A stretch of DNA of 64,000 nt from Candidatus Omnitrophota bacterium (lineage in GTDB: Bacteria; Omnitrophota; Gorgyraeia; Gygaellales; Profunditerraquicolaceae), in assembly GCA_043800555.1 (NCBI GenBank), contig JAZDMX010000003.1:97947-161946 (forward strand), in the 5' to 3' direction. Under the pieces are notes generated by a model. The model searched no databases and was not told where the DNA came from. It was given only the letters and a program-made list of their open reading frames with translations. Positions 19,779 through 52,080 of the stretch are shown one piece after another (positions within the stretch are counted from its first letter, which is position 1; each line of letters opens with the position of its first letter). A program made the translations under genes and the position numbers.

Positions 19779-20663
19779 ATGGAGGGCCCCGGAATGAAAG
19801 GAATTATCCTGGCAGGCGGAAAAGGCAGGCGGCTTTATCCCATCACTAAAGGCGTTTGCAAGCAGATGCTTCCTATTTACGATAAACCGATGATTTATTA
19901 CCCGCTTTCGGTTTTGATGCTGGCCGGAATAAGGGATATCCTGGTTATTTCTACTCCTAAAGATTTGCCCCGTTTTAAGGACCTGTTGGGAGATGGCGTA
20001 AGCCTGGGGGTTAAACTTTCTTATGCGTCGCAAGAGGCCCCTAAAGGCATTGCCCAAAGTTTTATCATCGCCGAAAGATTCATCGGAGATTCCAGCGTTT
20101 GCCTTATCCTCGGGGACAATGTTTTTTACGGTTACAATCTAAGCGAGCTTTTGCAGCAGGCAATTAAGATCAAGGATGGCGCGCTTGTTTTTGGTTATTA
20201 TGTCAAAGACCCCTGCCGTTATGGCGTAATTGAGTTTAACGGTAATTGCAAGGTAGCTTCGATCATAGAAAAGCCAAAGCGCCCTAAATCCAATTGGGTT
20301 GTTTCCGGGCTGTATTTTTATGATAACAAAGTAGTTGAAATCGCCAAGAAGCTTAAGCCTTCCAGCCGCGGAGAACTGGAGATTACCTCGGTCAATAATG
20401 CATACATCAAACGAGGCAAGCTAAAGGTCAAATTTCTCGGCCGGGGCCACGCCTGGCTGGATACGGGTACCTATGATTCTTTGATTGACGCTTCCATGTT
20501 TATCAAGGCGATCGAAGAGAGGCAGGGGCTAAAAATCGGCTGTATCGAAGAAGTCAGCTATCGGATGGGTTATATAAACAAGAAACAGTTATCGGCGCTG
20601 GCCTTAGAGATGCCTAACAGCTACGGAGAATATTTAAAGGATTTGTTAAGAAGAGCCAGGTAG
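19779..20663 (+). CDS. rfbA: Glucose-1-phosphate thymidylyltransferase
   Basis: MKGIILAGGKGRRLYPITKGVCKQMLPIYDKPMIYYPLS is the canonical RmlA N-terminus. 294 aa. Confidence 0.9.
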   Translation: MEGPGMKGIILAGGKGRRLYPITKGVCKQMLPIYDKPMIYYPLSVLMLAGIRDILVISTPKDLPRFKDLLGDGVSLGVKLSYASQEAPKGIAQSFIIAERFIGDSSVCLILGDNVFYGYNLSELLQQAIKIKDGALVFGYYVKDPCRYGVIEFNGNCKVASIIEKPKRPKSNWVVSGLYFYDNKVVEIAKKLKPSSRGELEITSVNNAYIKRGKLKVKFLGRGHAWLDTGTYDSLIDASMFIKAIEERQGLKIGCIEEVSYRMGYINKKQLSALALEMPNSYGEYLKDLLRRAR

Positions 20664-20735
20664 CCGCCTATCCCCACAGCCAAAACGCCATTCTCGCAGG
20701 AGGCGCTGCCAAAAGGGAGAATATCTTACCCGGAA

Positions 20736-21557
20736 ATGAATAAAAAAATCCTAATTTTAGGCAAAGGCTTTATCGGCCAAAGGCTGCAAAAGGATTTCGG
20801 TTGCGCCATTTGCAAGGAGTTTATCCGGAGCCTTAAGGACGCCCAGAGGATAATCAAAAAATATAACCCCGGGATCATCATTAATTGCATAGGCTCTACC
20901 GGAAAAAATAACGTGGATGGCTGTGAATCCGCCAAGGACGCTACTTTGCTGGCTAACAGCTTTGTCCCCGTTATCCTTGCGGAAGCCTCCTTGCGCAGCA
21001 ATATAAAGTTGGTCCATATCAGCAGCGGGTGTATTTTTAAGTTTAACTATGCCTTGGATAAGCCGGTATCAGAAGATAAATCGCCGGATTTTTTCGGCCT
21101 ATTTTATAGCCGTTCCAAGATCTATTCCGATTTAGCTTTAGCCGAACTTAGCAAAAAATACGATATTTTGATCTGCCGCATCCGCATCCCCTTATTGAAC
21201 CAGCCGCATCCGAAGAATATCCTGGATAAATTGATTAAATACAGGAAGGTAATAACTTTGAGGAATTCCGTGACCTATATCCCTGATTTTTCCAGGGCGC
21301 TTACGCATTTGATCAAAATTGGCGCAAGAGGGATTTATAACGTGGTGAATAAGGGCGGATTGAGTTACCCCGAACTTATGGATATTTATACGAAATACGT
21401 GCCGGATTTTAAGTATAAAACAATCGATTTCCGCAAGCTTGGGCTGGTGCGCACGAATTTACTGATCTCCGCGCGCAAGCTTGAGAAAACGGGTTTTAAG
21501 GTGCGGCCGATTGATTCGGTCCTCGAAGAATGCGTAAGAGAATACCTAAAATATTAA
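20736..21557 (+). CDS. dTDP-4-dehydrorhamnose reductase-like SDR (RmlD family, divergent)
   Basis: Rossmann N-terminus ILILGKGFIGQRL. ~270 aa. A YSRSK (YxxxK) motif. ISSGCIF aligns with RmlD ISTDYVF. It sits between rmlA and rmlB. Confidence 0.5.
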   Translation: MNKKILILGKGFIGQRLQKDFGCAICKEFIRSLKDAQRIIKKYNPGIIINCIGSTGKNNVDGCESAKDATLLANSFVPVILAEASLRSNIKLVHISSGCIFKFNYALDKPVSEDKSPDFFGLFYSRSKIYSDLALAELSKKYDILICRIRIPLLNQPHPKNILDKLIKYRKVITLRNSVTYIPDFSRALTHLIKIGARGIYNVVNKGGLSYPELMDIYTKYVPDFKYKTIDFRKLGLVRTNLLISARKLEKTGFKVRPIDSVLEECVREYLKY

Positions 21558-22549
21558 TTACCGGAGGCGCGGGGTTTATCGGCAGCGCCTTTACGCGGTT
21601 ACTTATAAGGGGCGGTTCTCTGGCTACCGGCCGTAAGAATAGCGCATTTCCCGTAGTAGTTGATAACCTCACTTATGCCGGAGACCTCCAGCGGCTTAAA
21701 GAGGTAGAAGGAAGGTTTAAATTCTACAAAGCGGATATCTGCGATAAAAATGCGGTTAGTGCTATTTTTTCTAGAGGGAGGCCGGATATCGTAGTGCATT
21801 TAGCCGCAGAGAGCCACGTTGACCGCAGCATTAAAGACGCCTCCATTTTTATTGATACTAATATTAAAGGAACGCAAGTTTTGGTTGACGCCAGCCGCAA
21901 ATACTGCGTAAAAAGATTTATCTTTATCTCTACCGACGAAGTTTACGGAGAAATAGCCGATGGCAGGTTTAATGAAAGCTCTCCTATCCGGCCGAACAGC
22001 CCTTATGCGGCTTCTAAGGCATCAGCAGACCTGTTGGTCCAGGCTTATATCCGGACCTATAAATTCCCCGCGGTAATTATCCGGCCGTCAAATAGTTATG
22101 GGCCATGGCAATACCCGGAGAAGTTAATTCCGCTGGCTATCTTGAGGGTATTGGGCGGCGCTAAGGTCCCGGTTTACGGAAAAGGCAAGAACGTGCGCCA
22201 GTGGCTCTATGTTGACGATTGCGCGCGGGGTATCCTGGCGGTAATGAATAAGGGTGAAATCGCAAAGGCCTATAACTTAGGGGGAGCTTGCGAAAGCAGG
22301 AATATCGATACGGTAAAAATGCTGTTAAAGGCCCTTGGCGTCAGCCCGCAGAGGCTTGAATTTGTTAGTGACCGCCCAGGCCATGACATAAGATATAGCC
22401 TTGACTCCAGAAGAATCTCCGGTGAAACCGGCTGGAGGCCGGATGTTGATTTTACCCAAGGCCTTAAGCTTACCGTAGATTGGTCGCTAAGGCATCGAAG
22501 CTGGCTTGAGAGTAAATTAAAGGACATAAACAAGCTGTATAATAAATAA
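21530..22549 (+). CDS. rfbB: dTDP-glucose 4,6-dehydratase
   Basis: [14 protein letters not shown] glycine motif and the STDEVYG and YAASKASAD catalytic motifs. 339 aa. Confidence 0.9.
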
Positions 22550-22559
22550 GGAGTTTTTC

Positions 22560-23621
22560 ATGCCTGTTGTTTTGGTCAGCGGTTCCTGCGGTTTAATTGG
22601 TTCCGAGACAGCCGGGTTTTTTGCCCAAAAAGGGTTTGATGTCGTTGGCATCGACAATAATATGCGTAAAACTTTTTTTGGCGAAGACGGCTCCATCCTT
22701 TGGAATAAAGAGCGCCTGCGGAAGAAATACAAAAACTACGCGCATTATTCCGTAGATATCCGCGACGAAAATAAAATAAACAGGATCTTTAGGCGGTTCG
22801 GCCCGCAGATCGCTTTAATCGTCCATACGGCGGCCCAGCCGTCGCATGACTGGGCGGCGAAAGACCCGTTGGTTGATTTTGGCGTCAATGCCGACGGCAC
22901 GCTGGTAATGCTGGAGGCAATGCGTAAGTTGGCGCCGGAAGCAGTTTTTATTTTTACCTCGACCAATAAAGTTTACGGCGATACCCCTAACCGCCTGCCG
23001 TTAATTGAGAAAGAAAAACGCTTTGAGATTTCCCCGGAACATAAATATTACCGGGGTATTGATGAGGGTATGAGTATTGACGGATGCCTGCATTCGGTTT
23101 TCGGCGCCTCAAAAGTCGCCGCAGACATAATGACGCAGGAATACGGCAGGTATTTTAATCTGCGCACAGCGGTGTTTCGCGGCGGATGTCTCACCGGCCC
23201 GGCGCATTCAGCAGCGGAATTGCACGGGTTTTTATCCTACCTGGTCAAATGCGCCGTGACAAGACGCAAATATAAGATTTATGGCTACAAAGGCAAGCAG
23301 GTCAGGGATAACATACATTCTTTTGACCTGGTAAACGCGTTTTATCATTATTTCCAGGCCCCCCGGTGCGGCGAAGTTTATAACATAGGCGGAGGCAGGT
23401 TCGCAAATGTTTCTATCCTGGAAGCGATTGAATTTTGCGAGGCGCTGACAGGGGAAAAATTCGAATATGAATATATCGATACTAACCGTATCGGCGACCA
23501 TATCTGGTGGGTCAGCGATGTCTCCAAGTTTAAATCGCATTATCCCGGCTGGCAGTATAAATTCGGCATAGAAGATACGATGAAGCAAATTTACCTGGCC
23601 CAGAAAGGGTTGTCGCAATAG
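22560..23621 (+). CDS. Extended-SDR epimerase/dehydratase, CDP-paratose 2-epimerase-like, with the catalytic Tyr position occupied by Phe
   Basis: [14 protein letters not shown] Rossmann motif and a TSTNKVYGD motif. The expected YxxxK reads [12 protein letters not shown], i.e. F where Tyr is expected. Confidence 0.6.
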
Positions 23622-23748
23622 GATCGGCTGCTTGCCGGATACAAGCAGCATCAGCTTGGCCGGCTTTTTACCTTGCGAAAGGAAACTGCCCTGATTTGGG
23701 TTTATTCGGCGCATCATTCATCAATGAGGTTGATATTTCAAGGTTTAA

Positions 23749-24792
23749 ATGAGATATAATAATATTCTAATTACCGGAGGCGCCGGTTTCATCGGCAGTA
23801 ACCTGGCGGTCTATTTCAAGCGTGAATACCCGCGGATGAAAGTGTTTGCTTTGGATAACCTGGCGCGCCGGGGAAGCGAATTTAACCTGCCGCGCCTTAA
23901 GGAAAACGGCATTAAATTCATCCTTGGGGATGTCCGTTACCCTAAAGACATGCGCCTAGGATTCGACATAGACCTGCTACTGGACTGTTCCGCCGAACCG
24001 TCGGTTTTGGCGGGTTATGATAACCCTTCCTATATCATTGATGCCAACCTGATGGGCACTGTTAATTGCCTGGAGTTTTGCCGCAAGCGAAAAGCGGGGA
24101 TGATTTTTCTTTCCACCAGCAGGGTTTATCCCTATGAGGAAATAAACGCGATCAGGCGCCGGGAAACAAAAAGCAGGTTTGAGTGGGATAACCCTGGCGG
24201 TATTGATACGGATTTTTCCCTGGCCGGCCCAAAGACCTTATACGGGGCGACTAAACTGGCCGGCGAGTTTATCCTTCAGGAGTATGCCGCCGCATACGGC
24301 ATCAAGGCGGTTGTGGACCGCTGCGGAGTAGTCGCCGGGCCATGGCAGTTCGGCAAGGTTGACCAGGGCGTTTTTACTTATTGGATGCTGGCGCACTATT
24401 TCAAGAAACCGCTTAAATATATCGGTTTTGGAGGCCAGGGTAAGCAGGTGCGCGACCTCTTGCATATTGATGACCTTTGCCGGTTAATCGGCCTGCAGGC
24501 AAACAGCCTTGGCGAATTAAGCGGGAATACTTATAATGTCGGCGGTTCAAGAGAAATAAGCCTCTCTTTATTGGAAACTACAGCGTTTTGCCGGCAGATT
24601 TCCGGCAATAAGGTAAGAGTAGGCCGGAATCTGCGCAACCGGCCGGGAGATATCGCGGTTTATCTTACTAATAACGAAAAAGTTACCCGTGACTTTAAAT
24701 GGAAGCCGCGCAAGGCATCCGCAACTATCCTGAATGATATTTTTGGCTGGATCAGGAATAATGAGGCAAAGCTAAAGAAGCTATGCGGTTAA
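23749..24792 (+). CDS. Extended-SDR epimerase/dehydratase (CDP-paratose 2-epimerase-like paralog)
   Basis: [25 protein letters not shown], and an intact YxxxK (TLYGATKLAGE). Confidence 0.65.
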   Translation: MRYNNILITGGAGFIGSNLAVYFKREYPRMKVFALDNLARRGSEFNLPRLKENGIKFILGDVRYPKDMRLGFDIDLLLDCSAEPSVLAGYDNPSYIIDANLMGTVNCLEFCRKRKAGMIFLSTSRVYPYEEINAIRRRETKSRFEWDNPGGIDTDFSLAGPKTLYGATKLAGEFILQEYAAAYGIKAVVDRCGVVAGPWQFGKVDQGVFTYWMLAHYFKKPLKYIGFGGQGKQVRDLLHIDDLCRLIGLQANSLGELSGNTYNVGGSREISLSLLETTAFCRQISGNKVRVGRNLRNRPGDIAVYLTNNEKVTRDFKWKPRKASATILNDIFGWIRNNEAKLKKLCG

Positions 24793-24798
24793 ATTAGC

Positions 24799-25539
24799 AT
24801 GGTTATTCAAGATACCCTGCGTAAACGTTTTATCTGCGCCGAAACCGATTCCCTGGTTATAGAAACAATCCAAACTGAATCCAAAACCCTGCGTCAGCGC
24901 CTAAGAATGCTTAAGCTTAAAGGGGCTTGGCGCGCTAATAGCCGGAATGAGCTTTGTTTTGATGTTGCCCTGCGCAAAGGCCGGCCGCAAACCTATACCT
25001 TTAAAGGGGCTTGGAAGCTGGATGATAACCAGCAGATTGAATATAGCAGCGGCCAAGGCCCGGATGTATTAACCTTAAAAGGGCACTGGGATATATCTTC
25101 GGCTAACCGGCTTGTTTATATTTTAGAAGGCAGTTCAACCTCGCGTTTTGAATTCAAGGCCCAGCTTGAGTCGCCTGTAATTTATCCTAAGGCAGGCCAG
25201 ATCCGCTACCGTATCGGCATAGGTAGCCGTAAAAGCCGGCTGACTGGCGGGCAGCTGCTTATTTTCTATGGTGAATGGAAATTTGGCCGTAATTTAGGGT
25301 TGGTTTTCCAGATGGATTATGGCCAGGGACGGGTTAAAGCCATTCTCTTTGGGGCAGAGTTAACCTTTGGCCGTAATAAGGTTATTTTTGCGCTTAAGAG
25401 CGAACTTGGCGAACCTTTAGGGATGGCCCTTACCATGACACATAAATACTTGGAACATCTTGATACTAAAGCTTTTATAAGATTAAAATCCCGCAGCAAA
25501 GAACAGGCAGTAGAAGCCGGCATAACTATCCCCTTTTAA
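24799..25539 (+). CDS. Hypothetical protein with four to five ~30-aa internal repeats (KG-x-W class)
   Basis: Repeats LKGAWRANSRNELCFDVAL, FKGAWKLDDNQQIEYSSGQ, LKGHWDISSANRLVYILEG, FYGEWKFGRNLGLVFQMDY, FGAELTFGRNKVIFALKS. No signal peptide. No recognisable catalytic motif. Confidence 0.45.
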   Translation: MVIQDTLRKRFICAETDSLVIETIQTESKTLRQRLRMLKLKGAWRANSRNELCFDVALRKGRPQTYTFKGAWKLDDNQQIEYSSGQGPDVLTLKGHWDISSANRLVYILEGSSTSRFEFKAQLESPVIYPKAGQIRYRIGIGSRKSRLTGGQLLIFYGEWKFGRNLGLVFQMDYGQGRVKAILFGAELTFGRNKVIFALKSELGEPLGMALTMTHKYLEHLDTKAFIRLKSRSKEQAVEAGITIPF

Positions 25540-25655
25540 CCAAAAAAATCCTTTGCTCCCCAGGCTTTAATGATATAATATCTCCCGGTGTTACCGCTGC
25601 GCGCCCGAATGGGCGAGATAGTTTCAGGCTAAGCATCAAAAATGCGGAGGTAGAT

Positions 25656-26390
25656 GTGTTAAAACAATACGGCTGGCTGCCTGACATCCCGGATAAACGC
25701 GATTTACTCTACAGTTCTATTAAGCCCCGCATTAAGCTTCTTCCTAAAGTTGATTTGCGTAAAAACTGTCCACAAATAGAGCGCCAGGGAAACCTTGGCA
25801 GCTGCACTGCTTGTGCCCTGGCCGGAAACATTGAATACCTGGATAACCTTTTGGATTTTATTTATACTGACGTTAGCCGGCTTTTTATCTATTATAACGA
25901 AAGGGCCCTGGAGGGAACGCAAGATTATGACGCCGGAGCGTCTTTGCGCGACGGCATAAAGTCCCTGAGGAAAACCGGTTATTGCTGGGAGGCATCCTGG
26001 CCTTATAAAATCGTTTTTTTTAGCCGGAAACCCCCGGTTCGCTGCTATAGAGAAGCCAGGCAGCATTGTATCCAATCCTACCATCGTATCAATAATTTAA
26101 GGGAAATGCTGGTTTGTTTGAGCCAGGGGTATCCTTTTGTTTTTGGTTTTACCGTTTATGAGAGCTTTGAGGGCCCGGCTGTAAAACGCACGGGTATCGC
26201 GAATATGCCTGAAAAAGGAGAGCGTGTTTTAGGCGGCCACGCCGTAATGGCAGTTGGTTATAACCAAAAAGAAAAGAGGTTCCTTGTCCGTAATTCCTGG
26301 GGTAAGCAATGGGGTAAGGGAGGGTATTTTACCCTGCCTTTTGAATACCTGGAAACCCTGGCCGCGGATTTCTGGACAATAAGGAAGTAG
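25656..26390 (+). CDS. Papain-like (C1 family) cysteine peptidase lacking a signal peptide and pro-region
   Basis: QGNLGSCTACALAG matches the Q...GSCWAF catalytic Cys context. GGHAVMAVGY supplies the His and VRNSWGKQWGKGGYF the Asn. 244 aa, and the N-terminus starts directly at the mature-domain equivalent. Confidence 0.7.
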   Translation: MLKQYGWLPDIPDKRDLLYSSIKPRIKLLPKVDLRKNCPQIERQGNLGSCTACALAGNIEYLDNLLDFIYTDVSRLFIYYNERALEGTQDYDAGASLRDGIKSLRKTGYCWEASWPYKIVFFSRKPPVRCYREARQHCIQSYHRINNLREMLVCLSQGYPFVFGFTVYESFEGPAVKRTGIANMPEKGERVLGGHAVMAVGYNQKEKRFLVRNSWGKQWGKGGYFTLPFEYLETLAADFWTIRK

Positions 26391-26399
26391 AGGGATAAG

Positions 26400-27440
26400 A
26401 TGAAAAAGGCGTTAATTACCGGAGCTACCGGCCAAGACGGTTCGTACCTGGTGGAGTTACTCTTATCTAAAGGATACGAAGTCCATGGCATTATCCGCCG
26501 GGCAAGCACTTTTAATACCGGCAGGCTCAACCATATCTATACCGATCCGCACGAGCCTAAGGCCAAATTGTTCCTGCACTACGGCGATATTTCCGATGCC
26601 GAGCAAATCAACAATATTATTTTCAATATTAAACCTGACGAAGTGTACCATTTAGCCGCGCAAAGCCATGTGCGGGTAAGTTTCGATATTCCCGAATACA
26701 CCGGCAATATCACTGCTTTAGGCGCCACGCGTATCCTGGAATCGATCCGCCGGAGCGATAGGAAGATTAAACTCTACCAGGCCTCCAGCAGCGAGATGCT
26801 GGGGGCAGCGCATCCTCCGCAGTCGGAGGCTACGCCTTTTCAGCCGCAAAGCCCCTATGCCTGCGCCAAGGTTTACGCGTATTGGATGGTTAAAAACTAC
26901 CGTGAAGGCTACGGTTTATTTGCCTGCAACGGCATACTTTTTAACCATGAGTCGCCCAGGAGAGGGGAGACATTTGTTACCCGTAAAGTTACCCGCGCTC
27001 TCGCCGGTATCTTAGCCGGCAAGCAAAAGAAACTTTACCTGGGTAACCTTGAAGCAAAGCGCGACTGGGGCTTTGCCCCGGAGTATGTCGAAGGCATGTG
27101 GAAAATCCTCCAGCAGGAAAAACCGGATGATTTTGTTTTAGGCACGGGCCAGTCGCATGCGGTGAAGGAATTTGTCCAAGCGGCATTTGCTTACGCGGGA
27201 TTAAACTGGAAGAAATACGTATTGATTGACAAGAGGTATTTCCGCCCGACAGAAGTAAATGTGCTTAAGGCCGACCCATCCAAAGCCAAAAAGGCCTTAG
27301 GCTGGAAACCCAAAGTTACCTTCGATGATTTAGCCAAGATTATGGTTGATGCCGATATGCGCCAGATCGGCCTTAAGCCTATCGGCGAAGGCGATAAGAT
27401 TTTAAAACTAAAATTCACCAACAGGTGGTGGAAGGTCGAC

Positions 27441-27443
<3 letters not shown>
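26400..27443 (+). CDS. gmd: GDP-mannose 4,6-dehydratase
   Basis: [46 protein letters not shown] is the canonical Gmd N-terminus. YACAK YxxxK motif. Confidence 0.9.
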
Positions 27444-28463
<1,020 letters not shown>

Positions 28464-28464
28464 T

Positions 28465-29679
28465 ATGAGTAACCTTAGCAGGAAAAAGAAATCCGATAAT
28501 CTAAACGCTAAAGGCTGGAGGTTTGCAGGCAACGAAAGGCGGTATTTGGATGAGGTTTTATCTAACGGCTTTACCGCCGGAGGAACCGGGACAATGACCG
28601 AACGTTTAGAAAACGGTTTTGCCGCTCTCCACAAAAAGAAATACGCCATTGGCGCAAATTCCGGGACTTCTACTTTACATATGGCGTTAAAGGCTTTTGG
28701 GGTAGGCCCCGGAGATGAAGTCATCGTCCCCGGGCTTACGGTGGCTATGTGCGGGTTTGCAATCTGGCAGTGCCAGGCAACCCCGGTTTTTACGGATGTG
28801 CGCGAAGATACCTTCCTGCTTGATCCTGCGGATATAGAAAAAAAGATAAGCAAAAAGACAAAACCGATTATGCCAGTGCATCTTTATGGCTTAATGTGCG
28901 ATATGGGGGCTATCCTCAAAATTGCCAAGAAGCACGATTTATATATTGTTGAAGACTGCGCTCAATGCTACCTGGCCGAAGATGGCGCGGGCAGGATAGC
29001 CGGCACCGCAGGAGATGTCGGTAGCTGGAGTTTTGAGAATTCAAAACATATATCTACGGGAGACGGGGGGATAGTGCTTACGGATAATGAGCGCCTGGCA
29101 GAGTATATGAGGCAATTCGGAGGCGTAGGCTTTAAGAATATTACCGCAACTAGCGGTAAGGTAAGAATTGATAGGGATAAATTTCAAGATCCGTCCTGGC
29201 TACGGCATAGCATACCGGCTTATAACTACAGGCTTCCTGAATTATGCGCAGCTGTTGCCTTGGCCCAGTTAGAGCGGGTAAAATTATTTTGTAAGCTCAG
29301 GATAACCATGGGATTGGGTTATCTTGAAGTCATCCGCAGGACAAAAACCAGGCTCCTGGTTCCCCAAAAGACCCCGCGGGGATATACGCATTCGTATTTT
29401 ACGTTTGCCGCCCTTTTCAGGGGAGGCGAGTGCGGGATAGGCTGGCAGGAATTCAGGAAAAAGCATATCGAAAACGGGGGAGACGGCATTTACGCCGCCT
29501 GGCAGACATTGAATAATGAGCCTTGTTTCAAGAACAATAATATCGGCTATGGGAGGATCCCTGTCGCGGAAAAGCTCCAGCAAAATCTTATGCAATTTAC
29601 CACTAACCAGCATGACGGGACGCAACGCAATAAGCAGTTCCAGGCTTTAGAGAAAACAATAAAATATTTTAGTAAGTAG
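28465..29679 (+). CDS. DegT/DnrJ/EryC1/StrS-family PLP-dependent sugar aminotransferase/dehydratase-like protein (divergent)
   Basis: Fold-type I region with DEVIVPGLT, IVEDCAQC and SFENSKHISTGDGGIV, a variant of the SFxxxKxxxxGxGG PLP-Lys motif. Confidence 0.55.
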   Translation: MSNLSRKKKSDNLNAKGWRFAGNERRYLDEVLSNGFTAGGTGTMTERLENGFAALHKKKYAIGANSGTSTLHMALKAFGVGPGDEVIVPGLTVAMCGFAIWQCQATPVFTDVREDTFLLDPADIEKKISKKTKPIMPVHLYGLMCDMGAILKIAKKHDLYIVEDCAQCYLAEDGAGRIAGTAGDVGSWSFENSKHISTGDGGIVLTDNERLAEYMRQFGGVGFKNITATSGKVRIDRDKFQDPSWLRHSIPAYNYRLPELCAAVALAQLERVKLFCKLRITMGLGYLEVIRRTKTRLLVPQKTPRGYTHSYFTFAALFRGGECGIGWQEFRKKHIENGGDGIYAAWQTLNNEPCFKNNNIGYGRIPVAEKLQQNLMQFTTNQHDGTQRNKQFQALEKTIKYFSK

Positions 29680-29747
29680 CGTACCCGGCAGCCGTCTTCC
29701 CGGATGAGGCCATTGTTTAGGAATAAGTTATCTGGAGAATAAAAACG

Positions 29748-30608
29748 TTGGATAAACCGGTTAATAACGCGGAAAATATTTATGGGCCCCGGCAAGTCGT
29801 GGTCATTAAGCCCGGCAATCCCCCGGGGCAATACTGGGTAGATATCTGGCGCTACCGGGAATTATTCTATTTTCTTGCCTGGAGGGATATAATTGTCCGG
29901 TATAAGCAGACTATAATCGGAATCGCTTGGTCCTTGATACGCCCCTTCTTGACCTTGGTTGTTTTTACCGTTGTTTTTAGCAAGATCGCCAAGCTGCCGT
30001 CTTATGGCGCGCCTTATCCGGTATTGGTATTCGCCGGATTATTGCCGTGGCAGTTTTTTGCGAACGCCCTGTCCGAAAGCAGTAATTCGCTCATTGATAA
30101 TGAAAAATTGATTACAAAGGTATATTTCCCGCGTTTTATTGTCCCTTCCAGCACGGTTATAGTGAGCATCGTGGATTTCCTGCTTAATTTATTGATCCTT
30201 ATCGCAATAATGGCATGGTATCGCTTTGCCCCCGGCCCCAGGATAATGATCTTGCCGCTATTCTTTTTGTTCGCTGTTATTGTCGCTATGGGCGCCGGGC
30301 TATGGATGGCCACTTTGAATGTGAAATACCGCGATTTTCGCTATATAGTCCCTTTTGTAATACAATTCGGGCTTTATATTTCACCTGTCGGTTTTAGCAG
30401 CGCCGTTGTCCCGCAGAATTGGAGGTTATTGTATTCGTTAAACCCTATGGTCGGGGTAATTGATGGGTTCCGTTGGGCGATAATTGGCGGAGAGTCGCAT
30501 TTTTACTGGCCGGGATTTATTATCTCCATAATCCTGGCTTTAGTGATCTTTATATCGGGCTTATTTTATTTTCGTAAGGCAGAGAAAAAATTTGCGGATG
30601 TGATTTAG
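29748..30608 (+). CDS. wzm: ABC-2 type polysaccharide/O-antigen export permease (Wzm)
   Basis: Six TMs and the characteristic [19 protein letters not shown]-terminus of Wzm/KpsM-type permeases. Confidence 0.8.
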
Positions 30609-30615
30609 AGGGCTT

Positions 30616-31908
30616 ATGAATCCGGCTGTTAAAGTAGAAAATCTCGGTAAGAAATATATCATTCGCCACAATAAAGAGGCCCGTTATACGGCCTTACGCG
30701 ATGTAATAACTGATAAAGTCCGGGATATTTTTAGTTTGAATAAGCCGAAGATAAGATCCGGATTAGCCGTAGAACAGCAAGAGAGTTTTTGGGCTTTAAA
30801 AGATATTTCTTTTGAGGTTAACCCCGGAGAGAGGCTTGGAATAATCGGCAGGAATGGAGCCGGCAAGTCAACCCTGCTGAAGCTTTTGAGCAGAATTACC
30901 GAACCTACCACCGGCAGAGCGGTTATCAGGGGGCGCATAGCCAGTTTACTTGAGGTCGGGACGGGTTTTCATCCGGAATTAACCGGCAGGGAGAATATAT
31001 TCTTAAACGGCGCTGTCTTGGGTATGCCTAGGGCGCAAATAAAGGACAAATTCGATGCAATGGTGGCATTTGCGGAAGTGGAAAAATTCCTCGATACTCC
31101 GGTTAAGCGTTATTCTTCGGGGATGTATGTGCGTTTGGCTTTTGCGGTAGCTGCGCATCTTGATCCGGACATATTGGTTGTTGACGAGGTTTTGGCTGTG
31201 GGCGATGCTCAATTCCAGAAGAAATGCCTGGGGAAGATGGAAGAGGTTTCAACTCAAGAGGGAAGGACCGTGCTGTTTGTCAGCCATAACATGGGTGCTA
31301 TAGGGCAGTTATGCCAGAAGTCCATTCTTTTAGAAAACGGCAGTTTAGCCTCAACCGGAGAAACCGGCGTTGTTATCCAGCGTTATCTGGAGGGTAAAAG
31401 TTCTGGAATACTGGGAGAGAGATCGGGAATAAGCTTTAAAGAAGAAATCGGCAAGGAGCTCCAGATATCTTCCATCAAAGTAACCGATAACAAAGGAGAC
31501 ACTTTTGTAGAGCTAGATAGGATGCGTCCTTTTAGAATTGCTATAGAATATAGCGTGCGTAAATATACTGAAGTGGCCAGCGTAGATTTTGTTTTAGAAA
31601 CCTTGACCGGGGTATATATATGCCAATGTTCCGATCTTGATTTGGCCCTGGGCAAAATAATTAAGCGTGAGCCTGGATGTTATCTTGCTTATGTGGAATT
31701 CCCCGGTTACATGTTTAACGCCGGTTCATACCAGGTCCGGGCCTGGATATTGGCTGGCCAGCATGAGGTTTATGACTCTCCGGCAAAAGGCGTTATCTTC
31801 CATCTTTATGACAGCGGGACATTTGCAGCTACTTCTTCAGGAATGGGAGGGCAGCGTAACGGCATATTGGCGATGCCGGTTCAATGGAATACCAGCAGAA
31901 TAAAATGA
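30616..31908 (+). CDS. wzt: ABC transporter ATP-binding protein Wzt with a C-terminal glycan-binding domain
   Basis: Walker [13 protein letters not shown], signature [12 protein letters not shown], Walker B ILVVDE. A ~180-aa C-terminal extension typical of Wzt O-antigen terminal-residue recognition domains. Confidence 0.85.
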
Positions 31909-32408
31909 AAAAACTCAAACTATTAAAACAAGGCATAGATTTAATTGTTTATGACTTTGACGGAGTAATGACGGACAATAAAGCCTTCTTCTTTGAAGAC
32001 GCAAGAGAGGCTGTCCTGGTGAACAGGTCCGATGGCCTAGCGGTTAGCATAATTAAAAAGTCAGGTATCCCCCAGATTATTATCTCTACCGAGCCCAATA
32101 AAGTAGTGCAGGCGCGGGCAAGAAAGCTCAAGATTCCTTGCCTCTACAATATAAGCGATAAGAAAGCCGCACTAATTATGTACTGCAGAAAGATGCAGTT
32201 CGATATTAAGAAAACTATTTATATCGGTAACGATATCAATGATTTTGAGGCGATGAAAATCGCCGGTATCCCCATGGCCCCTCTGGATGCTTCCGTAGAA
32301 ATAAGGAGGATGGCTAGAGTTATCATAAATGTCCGCGGAGGCGACGGGGTCATCCGGGGTTTATTAAACTTATTAAACTTAGAAAGGGCTAAAGAAGATG
32401 ACAAGTGA
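31884..32408 (+). CDS. HAD-superfamily phosphatase, KdsC-like (ulosonate/nonulosonate-phosphate phosphatase)
   Basis: [19 protein letters not shown] is HAD motif I in KdsC family context. YIGNDINDF is motif IV. 174 aa. Confidence 0.7.
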
Positions 32409-33270
32409 GAATATTAATAAGCAAAATAACCGGATTTTCATAATAGCGGAATTGGGGATAAATCATAATGGCGATCTAAGCATTGCCAGGGAATTGATTA
32501 AAGTGGCAAAGGACGCCGGGTGTGACGCGGTTAAGTTCCAGAAGCGCTCGGTAGAACTTGTTTATTCAAAAGAGCTCCTTGATTCCCCGCGCCAGAGCCC
32601 CTGGGGAAATACTCAGAGGGCGCAAAAGGAAGGCCTGGAGTTAAGCTTGGAGGAATACCGGCAAATAGACCGTTATTGCAAAGAATTAGGCATCGAATGG
32701 TTCGCTTCGGCTTGGGATCTAGGGAGCTTAAGGTTCTTAAGGCAATTTAACCTGAAATATAATAAAGTTGCTTCGGCGTTATTGACCTACGATGCTTTCC
32801 TGAAAGAGGTGGCCGCGGAGAGAAAGTATACATTTATTTCTACGGGCATGAGCAACCTTGAACATATCGACCACGCCGTGGACATATTCAGGAAACAGGG
32901 TTGTCCTTTTGAATTGATGCATTGTATTTCGGTTTATCCTATGGATGACGAAGACGCTAATTTAAGCTGTATTAAGACGCTAAGAGAACGCTATAAATGT
33001 AACGTGGGATATAGCGGCCATGAAGTAGGGCTGGCTATTTCTTATGCCGCTGTGGCCTTTGGGATAAGTTCGCTTGAACGGCATATAACATTAGACCGGG
33101 CTATGTACGGTTCGGATCAGGCGGCCTCTCTTGAGCCGCCGGCTCTAAGAATGTTGGTTGGCGCCGTAAGGAAGATTGACAAGGCCATTGGAGACGGGGT
33201 AATTTCGATCCTGGAAAAGGAAGTGCCGATCAGCAAGAAGCTAAGGGCGCATTTCCTTAATTCTATCTAG
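32398..33270 (+). CDS. NeuB-family (N-acetylneuraminate/nonulosonate synthase) TIM-barrel protein lacking the C-terminal SAF domain
   Basis: IIAELGINHNGDLSIARELIKVAKDAGCDAVKFQK is the NeuB N-terminal signature. The ORF ends at 290 aa, with no antifreeze-like/SAF domain. Confidence 0.8.
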   Translation: MTSENINKQNNRIFIIAELGINHNGDLSIARELIKVAKDAGCDAVKFQKRSVELVYSKELLDSPRQSPWGNTQRAQKEGLELSLEEYRQIDRYCKELGIEWFASAWDLGSLRFLRQFNLKYNKVASALLTYDAFLKEVAAERKYTFISTGMSNLEHIDHAVDIFRKQGCPFELMHCISVYPMDDEDANLSCIKTLRERYKCNVGYSGHEVGLAISYAAVAFGISSLERHITLDRAMYGSDQAASLEPPALRMLVGAVRKIDKAIGDGVISILEKEVPISKKLRAHFLNSI

Positions 33271-33291
33271 GATTGGCCAGGACGTTAGCCT

Positions 33292-34044
33292 ATGAAAAAT
33301 AAAAAAGGATTAATTCCCGCTTTCATTACTGTAAGGTCTGCTTCATCAAGGCTTCCCTCAAAATGCCTTTTGCCATTTGGCGATGGAAATGTCTTGGAAC
33401 ATGTCATCCGCAGGGTTAAGTTTTTTGGATTGGAAGCGGTTGTCTGCACAACATCTGAACCCGGCGATGATATTATTGCGCAGATAGCCCGGAGAGAGCG
33501 GGTAGAGTGCTTCAGGGGCAGCTCCGAGGATAAGCTAAGGCGTTGGCTTGATTGTTGCGATAGCTTAGGGTTCGATAAATTCCATACTATAGACGCGGAC
33601 GACCCTTTTTTTGACCCCATTCTGGTAAAAAAAAGTTTCTCGCTGCTTAATAGGGGTTATGATCTGGTTTACCCGACCAAGAGTTCTTCTCTGGGAGCTG
33701 CAAGCGTGGGTTTCTCGTTAACCAGGGGCATAGTTTTCTTAGCGTGTGAAATTAAGAAAACCAAAAAGACGGAGATGGCCTGGGTATTCCTTGAGAGAGT
33801 TCCTGGGATAAGGGCTAAGAGGCTTGAGGAAGAATGCCCCGGAAAACCCAAATCCCGGCTTACCTTAGATTATGAAGAAGATTACTGGTTGCTTCGGACA
33901 GTCCAGCGTTTATTAGGGAATAACGCCTCCCGTAGGCGGGTTGACGATCTCTTTGCAAGAAATCCGGATCTCTATAAGGTCAACTGGTTTCGTAATAGCC
34001 AATGGAAAAAGAGGCAGGCTTTTTTAAGCAGGGTTAGGAAATAG
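33292..34044 (+). CDS. Acylneuraminate cytidylyltransferase-family protein (CMP-nonulosonate/ulosonate synthetase-like)
   Basis: LIPAFITVRSASSRLPSKCLLPFGDGNVLEHVIRR is the CMP-sugar synthetase N-terminal motif (compare PseF/SpsF/NeuA). Confidence 0.7.
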   Translation: MKNKKGLIPAFITVRSASSRLPSKCLLPFGDGNVLEHVIRRVKFFGLEAVVCTTSEPGDDIIAQIARRERVECFRGSSEDKLRRWLDCCDSLGFDKFHTIDADDPFFDPILVKKSFSLLNRGYDLVYPTKSSSLGAASVGFSLTRGIVFLACEIKKTKKTEMAWVFLERVPGIRAKRLEEECPGKPKSRLTLDYEEDYWLLRTVQRLLGNNASRRRVDDLFARNPDLYKVNWFRNSQWKKRQAFLSRVRK

Positions 34045-34048
34045 AAGG

Positions 34049-34870
34049 ATGATGAAAAAGCATAGTTTTGGAATAGTCCAGGGCCGTTTGACTCCTTCGC
34101 CCCGGGGCCGCTTACAGTGCTTCCCCCGGGATAATTGGCGGAAGGAATTTAGAGACGCATCTTTACTCGGGTATAATTTTATTGAGATGATAGCCGACAG
34201 GAGGTTTAACCCTAAGAATCCTCTTTGGAGTAGTCCCGGGCTCAAGAAGATAAAGGATGCGTGCTTGCGGCATAATCTTCAGGCGTATTCGGTCTGCAAT
34301 GATTTCATCATTAGCCACTCTCTTGTTAACGAGCCTAATGCCGAAGAGCAGACAATGAGGCTTATCGGCCGATCCGCTCTTCTGGGGATGAAAGTTTTGA
34401 TACTCCCGCTATTTGAGAGGAGCCAGATAAATATTCTAAATTACAGAAGGTTCTTGATTCCTTTAAGAAGGATTGCCGATGCTTCAGCCAGCAAGAAGAT
34501 CGTTATTTGCCTTGAAACAAACCTTGGGGCAGGGGAAATCCTTAGGATTTCGAAGTTTTTTAATCATTCCAACATTAAATATGTATTTGATTCCGGAAAC
34601 AGGGTTGTCCTTAAAGAAGATATCTACTCGGATATAAAGATCCTTAAGGGGTTGATAGGGCATATTCATATTAAAGACAAGGACCAGGCGGGGGATAATG
34701 TCCTGCTTGGAACGGGAAAAGTAAATTTTCTAAAGCTCTTCCGGTCTTTAGCGTTGATTGATTATACCGGCCCGTATGTCTTTGAGACTACAAGAGGGCG
34801 CGATCCTTTAAATACCGCCCGCTATCATAAAACATTGGTAGAGTTTTTCTTAAATGAGGCTTCAAAATGA
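34049..34870 (+). CDS. Sugar phosphate isomerase/epimerase (xylose-isomerase-like TIM barrel) family protein
   Basis: ~270 aa with an alternating beta/alpha pattern and a metal-ligand-like HIHIKD. Sits inside the nonulosonate module. Confidence 0.45.
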   Translation: MMKKHSFGIVQGRLTPSPRGRLQCFPRDNWRKEFRDASLLGYNFIEMIADRRFNPKNPLWSSPGLKKIKDACLRHNLQAYSVCNDFIISHSLVNEPNAEEQTMRLIGRSALLGMKVLILPLFERSQINILNYRRFLIPLRRIADASASKKIVICLETNLGAGEILRISKFFNHSNIKYVFDSGNRVVLKEDIYSDIKILKGLIGHIHIKDKDQAGDNVLLGTGKVNFLKLFRSLALIDYTGPYVFETTRGRDPLNTARYHKTLVEFFLNEASK

Positions 34871-35907
34871 TAAGAATACGGAAGATACTCTTTATAGGTT
34901 TAGGGGGAGCGGGGCAAAGGCATCTGCGGATTTTTAAAGATCTTCTTCCTGCCGATGTTGAATTCTTGGCTTTTCGCTCAACCGGAAAGACCCCTTTGCT
35001 TAATCCGGATTTCTCGGTCGATAATAGCTGTAGCCTAGAGAATAAATACGGGCTTAGATTATGCGGTTCTTTGAGGGAAGGCTTGGATAATAACCCGGAT
35101 TTAGCAGTGATTGCTAACCCTACTGTTTTGCATTTTGATACGGCAATTAAAGCAGCTGGGAGGGGCATAAATATATTTATCGAGAAGCCGCTTGCTTGCA
35201 GCCTAGCCGGGGCAAATAGCCTTAGCCGGCTGGTTTTAAGCAAGAATTTATATTTCTTTGTTTCTTTTCAATTGAGGTTTAATCCGCAGCTGAGGCTGGT
35301 TAAAGAGATGCTTCTTGAAGGCAGGCTGGGCAAGATTATTTCGGCCGAATTCAATGTTTGTTCATACGTTCCGGGGTGGCATAAATATGAGGATTTCAAA
35401 AACCTCTACGCCTGCAGGAAAGACCTGGGAGGAGGGGTTTTATTGACCGAGATACATGAAATTGACCTAGCTTGCTGGTATTTTGGCTTACCGGATTATG
35501 TTTACTGCGTTGCCGGTAATTATTCGGGGGTTCCTCTTGAGGTCGAAGATACGGCCCATACAATCTTGAAATATAAAGATTTCTCTGTGCAAGTGAACCA
35601 ATCTTTTATGCAAAAGCACCCGCGCCGGGACCTTTATATTTCCGGGACAAAAGGCTATCTTGAATGGAGCTCCCTGGATAATAAGTTGTTGTTCGAGGAT
35701 TACTCGGGCAAAAAAAAGAGAATAATAACCGGCGGAAAATTTAATTATGAGGGTATGTTTTATTCCCAGGCAAGGTTTTTCCTGAAGAAGGCCAAGAGGG
35801 CGGATAAGAACAGCATTAAGTCGGCATATGCTTCCGTAGCCGTTGTGGAGGCAGCCAAGAAGTCCAGCCAAACCGGCAGGGAGTGCAAGGTAAGCCGGGT
35901 TATTTAA
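34867..35907 (+). CDS. Gfo/Idh/MocA-family NAD(P)-dependent oxidoreductase
   Basis: KILFIGLGGAGQRHLRIF Rossmann N-terminus. A C-terminal alpha/beta domain with the EKPLA motif. Confidence 0.7.
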   Translation: MIRIRKILFIGLGGAGQRHLRIFKDLLPADVEFLAFRSTGKTPLLNPDFSVDNSCSLENKYGLRLCGSLREGLDNNPDLAVIANPTVLHFDTAIKAAGRGINIFIEKPLACSLAGANSLSRLVLSKNLYFFVSFQLRFNPQLRLVKEMLLEGRLGKIISAEFNVCSYVPGWHKYEDFKNLYACRKDLGGGVLLTEIHEIDLACWYFGLPDYVYCVAGNYSGVPLEVEDTAHTILKYKDFSVQVNQSFMQKHPRRDLYISGTKGYLEWSSLDNKLLFEDYSGKKKRIITGGKFNYEGMFYSQARFFLKKAKRADKNSIKSAYASVAVVEAAKKSSQTGRECKVSRVI

Positions 35908-36746
35908 AAAGAGAGGTGCGTATGGTTTTAGATAAATTCATCCTTAAAGATAGGGTTGTAGTTATAACCGGAGGCGCAGGCCTGTTTGGCTACCAGCATG
36001 CCGTTGCCGTTATTGAGGCCGGAGGTATTCCGGTTATTTCCGATGTTAATGTGGATGTTGCCCGGGAAGAGTCGGTTGCTTTGTCCGAAAAATACAAGAA
36101 TAAGGCTTTAGGCATCCGCATGGATGTTACTTCCAGAGAAAGCGTTCTGGAGGCAAAAAAGGAAATCCTTAACCAATTTGGGAGGATAGATTGTCTTATT
36201 AATAATGCGGCCTTGGACCCAAAGATGAATGATTCTTTGGATAATGCCTGGACGAGGTTTGAAAACTTTTCTGGCCAGGTATGGGATAAGGAGCTTTTGG
36301 TAGGCTTAAAAGGCGCATTTACCTGCAGCCAGGTTTTCGGGGAGCACATGGCTGAAAATGGCAAGGGTGTAATATTGAATATCGCTTCAGATTTAGGGAT
36401 TATTTCTCCCGATCAGAGGATTTATAGGAGGCAAGGGCTTCCCGAGGAAAAGCAACCTGTTAAACCCGTTACCTACTCGGTTATAAAACATGGTTTAATA
36501 GGTTTAACCAGGTATGCGGCAACTTACTGGGCGTTTAAAGGCGTCCGGGTCAACGCGCTTTGCGCGGGGGGAATTTATAATAACCAGCCCGGGGAATTTG
36601 TCGAAAAGCTCACTAATCTTATTCCTATGGCTAGGATGGCTGATTTAGATGAGTATCAAGCGGCCGTTGTTTTTCTTCTTTCCGACGCCTCTTCTTATAT
36701 GACCGGAAGCTCCTTGGTTATTGACGGAGGAAGGACCTGTTGGTAG
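35883..36746 (+). CDS. Classical short-chain dehydrogenase/reductase (SDR)
   Basis: VVVITGGAGLFGYQHA matches TGxxxGxG. NNAA motif. YSVIKHG is the YxxxK motif. Confidence 0.8.
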   Translation: MQGKPGYLKREVRMVLDKFILKDRVVVITGGAGLFGYQHAVAVIEAGGIPVISDVNVDVAREESVALSEKYKNKALGIRMDVTSRESVLEAKKEILNQFGRIDCLINNAALDPKMNDSLDNAWTRFENFSGQVWDKELLVGLKGAFTCSQVFGEHMAENGKGVILNIASDLGIISPDQRIYRRQGLPEEKQPVKPVTYSVIKHGLIGLTRYAATYWAFKGVRVNALCAGGIYNNQPGEFVEKLTNLIPMARMADLDEYQAAVVFLLSDASSYMTGSSLVIDGGRTCW

Positions 36747-36761
36747 CGCGGAGTAATTAAA

Positions 36762-38153
36762 ATGAGTAAAATTCTTTTTGTATATCCAAATAAAGAAGGT
36801 TATCCTATCATCCCTCTGGGGATAAGCGTCCTGGCAGGCATTCTTAAGAAAGCCGGCCACGAACTGGATATTTTTGATATTACTTTTATGATGCCGGAGA
36901 GGCTGGACCATAATGCCCGGATTAAAACCGGCGTAGTCATAAAAGTGGATATGGAGAAATACTGGGGAGAAGGCGCCGAGAAAGCCGATATTAATGTTGA
37001 GATTACCAGGAAGATCCAAGGCTTTAAACCTGATCTAGTAGCCTTTTCTGTGGTTGAAAACAACTATAGCTGCGCCAGGGGACTGTTTAAGGCGGTCAAG
37101 AAGGCAACAGATGCCCCTATTTTGGCCGGAGGCTTGTTTCCGACAGTCGCGCCGCAGTTTTTTATTGAAGATAAAAATGTAGATTTGCTTTGTATCGGGG
37201 AAGGCGAATACCCCATGTTGGAGCTGGCAACTAGGTTAGACGAAAAAAAAGGTTTTTCGGGCATAAATAACCTTATTATAAAAAATGGCGGCTTGATTGA
37301 GAAGAACCCTTATAACAGGTATTACGACTGGGAGCCAAACGTTTTCCAGGACTGGGGGAAATTCAGCGAAAAACATTTATTAAAACCTTTTGTCGGGAAA
37401 GTTTGGAGGACCGGTTTCTTTGAAACTTCCCGGGGTTGCCCTTTCCAGTGTTTCTATTGCGCCAACCATGTGTATCAGGATATTTTCAAGTCGCTAGGGA
37501 AATACCACAGAGAAAAGCCGCTGGATTATGTTATGGAGGAAATATCCTATAAAAAGAAGAAGTATTCTTTGGAATTATGCTTTTTTAACGATGAAAATTT
37601 CGTAATGATGGGCGAAGACAGATTCAAGAAATTCTGCGCGGAATACAAAAAACACATAGATTTGCCATTTTTTATTCAAACCCGGGCCGATACCCTCTTG
37701 AACGAATCTAAGGTCAGGGCGTTAAAAGAAACGGGTTGCGTTACTATCGGTATAGGCGTTGAATCGGGAAGCGAGAGAATACGCAAGGAAGTGTTAAACA
37801 AGCCTTTATCAAACCAGGCCTACCTGAAAGCATTTGAAAATTGCCATAAATATGATATCCGGACAACAGCCAACGTTATGATGGGAGTGCCTTTTGAGAA
37901 AGAAGAAGATATACTGGAATCTGCCGAGTTCTGCAAGAAAATTAAGGCAAAAAGCGTTTCTCTGGCTATTTTTGCCCCTTATTATGGGTCTGGGTTGCGG
38001 GACATTTCCGTAAAGCACGGTTTTATAGAAGACAAATACCATGACGATATTTCCATGAATTATACTTCGATTATGAAGATGCCGCAATTGTCAAAAGAGA
38101 AAATCGAAGAATTATATTATAAATTTAACAGTTTAGTCTACGGCGGAAGTTAA
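36762..38153 (+). CDS. Cobalamin (B12)-binding domain radical SAM enzyme #1
   Basis: N-terminal B12-binding-like Rossmann (ILFVYPNKEGYPIIPLGISVLAGILKKAGHE). Radical SAM cluster motif TSRGCPFQCFYCANH (CxxxCxxC). Confidence 0.8.
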   Translation: MSKILFVYPNKEGYPIIPLGISVLAGILKKAGHELDIFDITFMMPERLDHNARIKTGVVIKVDMEKYWGEGAEKADINVEITRKIQGFKPDLVAFSVVENNYSCARGLFKAVKKATDAPILAGGLFPTVAPQFFIEDKNVDLLCIGEGEYPMLELATRLDEKKGFSGINNLIIKNGGLIEKNPYNRYYDWEPNVFQDWGKFSEKHLLKPFVGKVWRTGFFETSRGCPFQCFYCANHVYQDIFKSLGKYHREKPLDYVMEEISYKKKKYSLELCFFNDENFVMMGEDRFKKFCAEYKKHIDLPFFIQTRADTLLNESKVRALKETGCVTIGIGVESGSERIRKEVLNKPLSNQAYLKAFENCHKYDIRTTANVMMGVPFEKEEDILESAEFCKKIKAKSVSLAIFAPYYGSGLRDISVKHGFIEDKYHDDISMNYTSIMKMPQLSKEKIEELYYKFNSLVYGGS

Positions 38154-38180
38154 TTACCGGGGGGGTAATCTTCATCTAAA

Positions 38181-39386: not shown

Positions 39387-39410
39387 TTTATTAAAAGAAA
39401 GAGGAAAGCA

Positions 39411-40385: not shown

Positions 40386-40966
40386 TGAATAGGCAGGCGC
40401 TCCCTAATAATGCGTCGGATAGACCGAAAATATTATGCCCTGATCTGGTCCCGGTGAAAGAACAATACCGCAACAAGTGGTTTAAGGTATTGGAGCGCGG
40501 CGGGATCTTTACATTTGAATATGACCGGCCTCAAGTTGTGGTCTTGCCTATCGTGGACAAGAAGAGTATCGTCATGGTAAGGGTAAGGAGGCCGCTTATG
40601 GATGATTCCCCTTTAGAATTGCCGGCTGGGGATTCGCTGGAGCAGGAGACGCCCGCGGAAGCGGCAAGCCGGGAATTTTCCGAAGAAACAGGGATATGCG
40701 TCAATTCATTGGAAAGATTCAAGCCTGCAACCGCGATCTCTGAAATGCCGGGGAGGATGCCGGTCTTATTGAGCGTTTTTTATATAGAACTGGGTATGGA
40801 TGAATTTCTAAAGAGAAGGGCTTTTGATAAAAAAGAAATCATCTCCGTAGAACTGCTTTCAATAGGCGCAGTTATAAATAAGATCATTACCGGAGAAATA
40901 TATTTGAGCTCTCCTATCGCAATTTTATCGAGATTTATTTTCTCCAACTTGGATGGGATTAAATAA
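40364..40966 (+). CDS. NUDIX hydrolase (nucleotide-sugar pyrophosphatase-like)
   Basis: Nudix box LELPAGDSLEQETPAEAASREFSEETGI (Gx5Ex7REuxEExGu). Confidence 0.7.
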   Translation: MEVPEIMMNRQALPNNASDRPKILCPDLVPVKEQYRNKWFKVLERGGIFTFEYDRPQVVVLPIVDKKSIVMVRVRRPLMDDSPLELPAGDSLEQETPAEAASREFSEETGICVNSLERFKPATAISEMPGRMPVLLSVFYIELGMDEFLKRRAFDKKEIISVELLSIGAVINKIITGEIYLSSPIAILSRFIFSNLDGIK

Positions 40967-42438: not shown

Positions 42439-42441
42439 CGA

Positions 42442-45483: not shown

Positions 45484-45513
45484 GATAATATTAATTAAAT
45501 ATAAGGAGTTCAG

Positions 45514-46029: not shown

Positions 46030-46032
46030 AAA

Positions 46033-46956: not shown

Positions 46957-46989
46957 TTTAAGTGTTTGTTTTTAATTATGGAGGAATAA

Positions 46990-48024: not shown

Positions 48025-48078
48025 TTTTAATTAAAGCGTAGTTGTCTTAGGCGTTATAAGACTTAAGGAGATTATCAT

Positions 48079-49077: not shown

Positions 49078-49092
49078 AACATACCTGCCATT

Positions 49093-52072: not shown

Positions 52073-52080
52073 TATTATTT

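Follow-up and report, generated by a model that had tools for sequence, protein, structure and literature searches.

We found that the gene at positions 25,656 to 26,390 of the window (the whole stretch of DNA analysed, 64,000 nt, from a Candidatus Omnitrophota bacterium) encodes a short C1A cysteine peptidase of the xylellain type. Taken by itself, this family assignment is close to certain, and the protein is an ordinary member of a known, named family. We favour a fuller reading, in which the enzyme is a latent, leaderless endopeptidase with a protein or peptide substrate and a dispensable passenger co-transcribed with Omnitrophota glycan operons. We hold this package as a whole to be reasonably probable.

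Gene structure and translational start site

The gene and its ribosome-binding site were located as follows.

25656..26390, + strand: xylellain-type short C1A cysteine peptidase gene, 244 aa, GTG start, stop codon included
25646..25650, + strand: ribosome-binding site GGAGG, read from the sequence, 5 nt ahead of the GTG

An identical protein, encoded on a 304-kb contig, carries the NCBI name 'C1 family peptidase [Candidatus Omnitrophota bacterium]'. The reading frame upstream of the peptidase contains no ATG, GTG or TTG, though it is open back to at least 25500, and its translation ahead of 25656 has no signal-like character. Kyte-Doolittle analysis detected neither a signal peptide nor a membrane helix in the peptidase, the maximum being 0.3 with a 12-residue window over the first 45 residues and 1.0 with a 19-residue window over the whole protein. 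In 68 of 82 homologue loci, the maximal ORF reaches past the N-terminus of our protein by no more than 15 residues.

A missed upstream start, signal peptide or propeptide was ruled out by the start-less frame, the well-placed ribosome-binding site and the same start position in the homologues. The earlier note had described a protein with neither a signal peptide nor an I29 propeptide, and this description was borne out by hydropathy, Pfam and the extended upstream frame, all of which were negative. The peptidase is most likely located in the cytoplasm. Lack of a signal peptide is no proof that the enzyme works in the cytoplasm, because close homologues from plant-pathogenic Pseudomonadota are considered to leave the cell by a non-classical route (PMC12090721).

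Family membership, catalytic residues and predicted fold

The sole Pfam match of the peptidase above its cut-off was PF00112 (Peptidase_C1), with an E-value of 1.9e-13 and 51.4 bits against a cut-off of 20.7 over residues 31-227. NCBIfam gave no match for the peptidase or for the upstream repeat protein described below. The motifs on which the earlier note had relied (QGNLGSC, GGHAVMAVGY and NSWGKQWGKGGYF) were all found in the ORF. The catalytic Cys, His and Asn and the Gln of the oxyanion hole stand in the canonical C1A order, and Gln44, Cys50, His195, Asn213 and Trp215 were invariant in a family alignment of 32 sequences with identity down to 42%. Four of these residues are encoded at the following positions, the last three being read from the sequence as well as the alignment.

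25785..25787, + strand: Gln44 codon, oxyanion hole
25803..25805, + strand: Cys50 codon, catalytic nucleophile
26238..26240, + strand: His195 codon, catalytic base
26292..26294, + strand: Asn213 codon, third residue of the triad, in the invariant NSW motif

The Pfam match above threshold and the invariant catalytic residues confirmed the earlier identification of a C1 peptidase with an intact catalytic apparatus. Because these residues are invariant across the 32 sequences, the product is predicted to be an active-type enzyme, not a pseudo-enzyme.

AlphaFold2 (AF2) prediction from the single sequence gave a pLDDT of only 35, and a model built on the family alignment (pLDDT 94.3) was used instead. 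Foldseek matched this model with a probability of 1.00 to xylellain (3OIS), papain and cathepsins, which corresponds to the two-lobed papain fold. The best solved relative was xylellain of Xylella fastidiosa (XF0156, 3OIS), with an E-value of 2e-55 over residues 4-243; the model and the xylellain structure superposed with a TM-score of 0.91 at 42% identity, and papain and the cathepsins with TM-scores of about 0.65-0.80. Our protein and xylellain share a single papain-fold domain, the same catalytic residues and the N-terminal motif YG[WY]xPDxxDxRD, and both are without a signal peptide and an I29 propeptide. Our protein lacks two internal insertions of xylellain. As a single domain of 244 aa with a homologous short N-terminal region, it fits the xylellain-type class. 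The settings differ: a plant-pathogen or phage-associated one for xylellain (PMC12090721), an Omnitrophota glycan locus for the gene studied here.

Papain and cathepsins L and B have the same fold and the Gln/Cys/His/Asn/Trp constellation at about 20% identity. Their zymogens carry a signal peptide and an I29 propeptide of about 100 residues, whereas our protein has only a 30-residue arm. The equivalent of papain Cys22, three residues ahead of the catalytic Cys, is Leu in 93% of the close homologues of our protein. The close subfamily conserves Cys38, Cys110, Cys130 and Cys154, so that disulfides in the peptidase are conceivable. The C1B peptidases (aminopeptidase C/bleomycin hydrolase) are likewise leaderless bacterial C1 enzymes without a propeptide. 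Membership of C1B was ruled out by length (244 aa compared with about 440 aa) and by PF03051, which matched only residues 195-233 (39 residues) at 17.8 bits, below its cut-off of 22.

The N-terminal arm

The mature-domain equivalent begins near Leu29/Pro30, so that the leader is about 28-30 residues long.

25656..25745, + strand: N-terminal arm, residues 1-30, with a near-invariant YGWxPDxPDxRD motif; equivalent to the short N-terminal region of xylellain

The PDxPDxRD stretch of the arm is the most conserved part of the N-terminus. D10, D13 and D16 were invariant in the 32-sequence alignment, and P9, P12 and R15 occurred in 98% of 85 close sequences. The pLDDT across residues 1-30 of the AF2 model was 80-86. 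The 3OIS chain consists of a 20-aa His tag followed by native xylellain beginning MQTVLKRRKKSGYGYIPD; once this tag is discounted, the N-terminus of our protein is just 8 residues shorter than that of xylellain. Residues 4-30 align to residues 12-38 of native xylellain and thereby cover its short N-terminal region almost completely. Zymogen structures were more similar to the AF2 model (TM-score 0.80 for 4i04 and 0.77 for 1cs8) than mature enzymes (0.64-0.73) and aligned over more columns, a difference consistent with the predicted arm overlaying the end of a propeptide.

Leite et al. in 2013 (FEBS Lett 587:339) are said to have reported that part of the xylellain N-terminal sequence blocks the active site. 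The earlier note had regarded our enzyme as constitutively unblocked, and this view does not agree with the match of residues 4-30 to the xylellain N-terminal region, the near-invariant motif and the occlusion reported for xylellain. A mini-pro-region is more likely than a constitutively unblocked enzyme, and the arm probably auto-inhibits the peptidase, judging by analogy with xylellain.

The same work of Leite et al. reportedly also described a ribonucleotide outside the active site of xylellain that modulates its activity. Among the other papers searched, none described this nucleotide ligand. A speculative extension is that nucleoside diphosphates (UDP, GDP and dTDP, by-products of glycosyl transfer) might release the arm of a latent cytoplasmic protease in glycan loci. 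If so, proteolysis of envelope or glycan-assembly proteins would be coupled to nucleotide-sugar flux. We consider this gating improbable, because it draws only on a ligand reported for xylellain and on genomic context.

Distribution of xylellain-type peptidases

Homologues of the peptidase formed more than 8,000 clusters at 90% identity (E-value of 1e-10 or below). Clustering at 50% identity gave 19,524 clusters at an E-value of 1e-3 or below and 2,843 at 1e-30 or below. Most family members are about 245-260 aa long, and their alignment begins at residue 2-5 of our protein. Short single-domain C1A peptidases are widespread across Bacteria and Archaea, the intracellular ones have no signal peptide, and the type has been acquired by giant viruses and tailed phages (PMC10380794). 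The earlier note had called a leaderless enzyme of this kind unusual; leaderless short C1A peptidases are in fact a very large family that has been described as 'xylellain-type' (PMC10380794). Among phage homologues, one from a 595-kb phage was 47% identical and one from the Burkholderia jumbo phage FLC9 was 38% identical. A scan with the single protein as the query yielded no relatives in viral contigs.

The glycan locus surrounding the peptidase gene

The peptidase gene is embedded in a long run of genes on the same strand.

19779..64000, + strand: glycan super-locus around the peptidase, at least 44 kb, co-directional, running past the end of the window
24799..25539, + strand: repeat protein, 246 aa, with four invariant GxW motifs, Omnitrophota-specific, the upstream neighbour of the peptidase
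26400..28463, + strand: gmd (GDP-mannose 4,6-dehydratase family match) and an fcl-like epimerase/reductase, downstream of the peptidase

The first part comprises rmlA, rmlD and rmlB, a pair of SDR genes, the genes for the repeat protein and the peptidase, gmd and fcl, DegT, wzm and wzt, HAD, NeuB and a CMP-transferase. Beyond these lie three genes for B12-radical-SAM enzymes, a transketolase split over two genes and rmlC, together with a GHMP kinase accompanied by a nucleotidyltransferase, a C-methyltransferase, another DegT, several glycosyltransferases and a Wzy_C protein. The super-locus combines genes for dTDP-rhamnose, GDP-fucose and nonulosonic acid (NeuB/CMP-transferase), and carries both wzm and wzt. 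The B12-radical-SAM genes are at 36762, 40966 and 44086 (+ strand), the split transketolase pair at 42442-44093, the sugar C-methyltransferase at 52081 and the Wzy_C-like protein at 61959. Four ORFs of 307-401 aa on the + strand (38181-39386, 46033-46956, 46990-48024 and 49782-50903) had no Pfam match at an E-value of 1e-5 or below.

The stop codon of the peptidase is separated from the start of gmd by 9 nt, and the repeat-protein gene ends 116 nt upstream of the peptidase, both on the same strand. No terminator-like site was found in the gap on either side of the peptidase. The earlier proposal that the gene lies in a glycan locus was supported, and the gene is probably co-transcribed with that locus. 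Scans for promoter and terminator consensus sequences around the peptidase gave chance-level results. No intergenic RNA structure was detected upstream of the peptidase (z = -0.85), and Rfam had no match anywhere in the 64,000-nt window.

The upstream repeat protein

We detected 276 homologues of the repeat protein, all in Omnitrophota and all annotated as 'hypothetical'. Assignment of the repeat protein to an inhibitor or fold already known was rejected, as Pfam, NCBIfam and PDB profiles gave no match. Its gene lies ahead of the peptidase in the window, in L004 (73% identity) and in L001 (40%). In L093, L094 and L095 it likewise follows the rml-SDR block, but no peptidase gene was present within the ±6 kb retrieved. 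Conversely, the peptidase occurs without the repeat protein in L007, L009, L011, L012 and most other loci. The two-gene module of repeat protein and peptidase suggested earlier is unsupported, because each gene occurs alone; the two reside independently of each other in the variable region downstream of the conserved rml block.

The position of the repeat protein is fixed directly after the rmlA-rmlD-rmlB-SDR-SDR block, whether the peptidase is present or absent (L001:6819-7850, L004:6191-6937, L093:6001-6747, L094:6001-6774 and L095:6001-6753). The L001 protein is longer, at 343 aa, and has extra repeats.

Genomic context of homologues

The context survey comprised six homologues on long contigs and 80 loci obtained by scanning GTDB species genomes, for which a 10-sequence alignment was the query. 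Neighbouring genes were labelled by phmmer, with Pfam-verified glycan proteins as seeds, alongside aggregated Pfam scans; these replaced sequence clustering of the neighbours, which was too fragmented. The other phyla were Verrucomicrobiota, Desulfobacterota, Ignavibacteriota, Bacteroidota, Myxococcota, Gemmatimonadota and Methanoperedens, among others.

Omnitrophota: 24 loci; at least one glycan gene within 5 kb in 20 and at least three in 16; glycan neighbours 79/203 (39%)
Other phyla: 61 loci; at least one glycan gene within 5 kb in 11 and at least three in 0; glycan neighbours 15/464 (3%)

Glycan matches in other phyla were mostly a single generic SDR, GFO or ABC gene, and the immediate neighbours there belonged to scattered, unrelated families in the aggregated Pfam scans. 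The neighbour Pfams in Omnitrophota were mainly GT1/GT4, epimerase/dehydratase, B12-radical-SAM, GT2, hexapeptide, GFO, exosortase and ABC. The closest homologues, which are from Omnitrophota (62-85% identity), share the glycan context of our gene and are not scattered, in line with the setting emphasized in the earlier note. The glycan context is real but lineage-specific, and apparently confined to Omnitrophota. Outside Omnitrophota, a DUF900 alpha/beta-hydrolase was the second commonest immediate neighbour of the peptidase (4/116).

Within Omnitrophota, the flanking genes vary. Upstream neighbours include RmlB, AsnB, a GH123-like protein and the repeat protein; downstream neighbours include gmd, wzm, PMT_2, exosortase, DegT and HTH/Fic. 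There was no constant glycan partner gene across the Omnitrophota peptidase loci.

The glycan link of the peptidase may be positional only, because loci of the same architecture lack the peptidase and no glycan neighbour is constant. The peptidase could then be a hitch-hiker: an ancestral Omnitrophota copy would have landed in the hypervariable part of a glycan island and remained in islands of this kind, where accessory genes collect. Its role would have nothing to do with the sugars and might be proteolysis of a housekeeping or regulatory sort, or resemble that of a toxin. We regard this as a possible but less probable account. It fits the neighbour-joining tree, in which the 24 Omnitrophota sequences formed one clade together with one doubtfully binned contig, and the homologues of other phyla, which are 55-62% identical to our protein and lie in unrelated contexts. 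It also fits the near-identical architectures of L093-L095, which lack the peptidase, the change of immediate neighbours between loci without a constant partner, and the presence of other accessory genes (AAA_14/DUF4143, Fic+HTH, ORF6N and PLDc_2) at the same junctions. However, the glycan context persists over the 62-85% identity range despite the reshuffled flanking genes. In three loci (L007, L009 and L012), the start of the peptidase gene and the end of the glycan gene ahead of it share 4 nt, an arrangement of translational coupling, and one MAG, JADFXQ01 (nDJH15bin13), carries two sister copies (L020 and L023), both in glycan loci.

The glycan contexts of these two copies differ, with wzm/wzt in one and GFO/DegT/SDR in the other. 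In L012, the gene that the peptidase start overlaps is the upstream GH123-like gene. In L012 (8001-10202) and L022, the peptidase directly adjoins the exosortase EpsH/EpsI pair of a PEP-CTERM exopolysaccharide locus; in L022 the peptidase is at 10001-10723, and the exosortase and EpsI are at 10833-12367 on the opposite strand. Accessory or mobile-type genes found at the glycan-locus junctions where the peptidase or the repeat protein also occurs were AAA_14/DUF4143, HTH+Fic, 23S_rRNA_IVP and ORF6N (L094:4782-5960, L011:207-1484, L007:8832-9512 and L012:10254-11813), which suggests that the start of the variable region in Omnitrophota glycan loci is an insertion hot-spot.

The earlier note had also proposed an enzyme that acts on a sugar intermediate, such as a hydrolase of amino-acylated sugars. 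An amidase or acyltransferase with a nucleotide-sugar or glycan intermediate as its substrate, such as an amino sugar that is amino-acylated, and with the papain-fold acyltransferase BtrH as its analogue, would suit the several loci in which the peptidase is surrounded by aminotransferases of the DegT type, amidotransferases of the AsnB type, and hexapeptide and GFO enzymes. Xylellain is said to bind a nucleotide, and our protein has a weak match to PF13529 (Peptidase_C39_2; E-value 0.033). However, this match reached only 15.2 bits against a cut-off of 24, and membership of the Peptidase_C39_2/BtrH-like acyltransferases was rejected on this score. No amino-sugar gene is a constant neighbour, and no other sugar-pathway gene occurs consistently. 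Close homologues of other phyla (55-62% identity) have no sugar genes nearby, and some have a protein-protease inhibitor as a partner. Xylellain itself reportedly cleaves peptide substrates (Nogaroto et al. in 2006, cited in PMC5542433). An amidase or acyltransferase of this kind is very unlikely, and the idea of a sugar-intermediate hydrolase was not supported.

Chagasin-family neighbours in Verrucomicrobia

In a verrucomicrobial subclade, a leaderless 108-aa gene product of the chagasin family (I42) is encoded 17-25 nt downstream of the peptidase (L036:2745-3071, L044:10772-11098, L047:2432-2758, L052:10771-11097 and L066:10765-11091). These I42 proteins carry an NPTTGYRW motif. The paired subclade is Chthoniobacterales/Udaeobacter-like, and the arrangement is that of a cytoplasmic peptidase-inhibitor operon. 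Because a chagasin inhibitor gene adjoins the verrucomicrobial peptidase, the pairing argues that these relatives are genuine proteases that need restraint inside the producer cell.

Chagasin I42-C1A operons are thus seen with verrucomicrobial homologues, whereas our gene has no adjacent I42 gene; a search of the window and the Omnitrophota loci with an HMM of the five I42 proteins from the verrucomicrobial loci found none. In comparison with operons of the staphopain-staphostatin type, the repeat protein upstream of our peptidase matched no inhibitor family. PADLOC defence models matched neither the peptidase nor the repeat protein.

These observations bear on whether the peptidase is a leaderless exported effector or toxin, as proposed for the xylellain-like peptidases (XLPs) of vascular plant pathogens, with the glycan locus being simply an island for the envelope or for host interaction. 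Non-classical secretion is predicted for XLPs, which are situated close to phage regions (PMC12090721), the xylellain-type family is present in jumbo phages, and the leaderless verrucomicrobial chagasin resembles an effector-immunity or staphopain-staphostatin arrangement. However, no inhibitor, immunity or secretion-system gene adjoins the peptidase in the window or the Omnitrophota loci, and the lack of a PADLOC match for the peptidase also counts against a toxin. We judge an exported effector to be highly improbable.

Discussion

The latent endopeptidase that we favour would catalyse by the papain machinery, with the Cys50 thiolate, the His195 imidazolium, Asn213 and the Gln44 oxyanion hole. 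The 30-residue YGWxPDxPDxRD arm would stand in for the I29 propeptide of about 100 residues. Lying over the active-site cleft, it would keep the enzyme latent until displacement or trimming of the arm, as is reportedly the case for xylellain. The enzyme probably acts on a protein or peptide and not on a sugar intermediate. In Omnitrophota, the gene would be a passenger that recurs in the variable part of surface-glycan loci but is dispensable there; it would be transcribed with these loci, and any link to envelope or glycan assembly would be generic and not bound to one sugar pathway.

As far as our literature searches show, neither the embedding in Omnitrophota glycan loci nor the verrucomicrobial chagasin pairing has been described. 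We regard both as modest comparative leads, not as a new kind of system. The peptidase alone adds little to a family that is very large, named and functionally unexplained, the substrate of xylellain included (PMC12090721). Members of this family also occur in plant pathogens and jumbo phages, and the glycan embedding in Omnitrophota and the chagasin pairing in Verrucomicrobia offer handles on the substrate and the regulator of xylellain-type peptidases.
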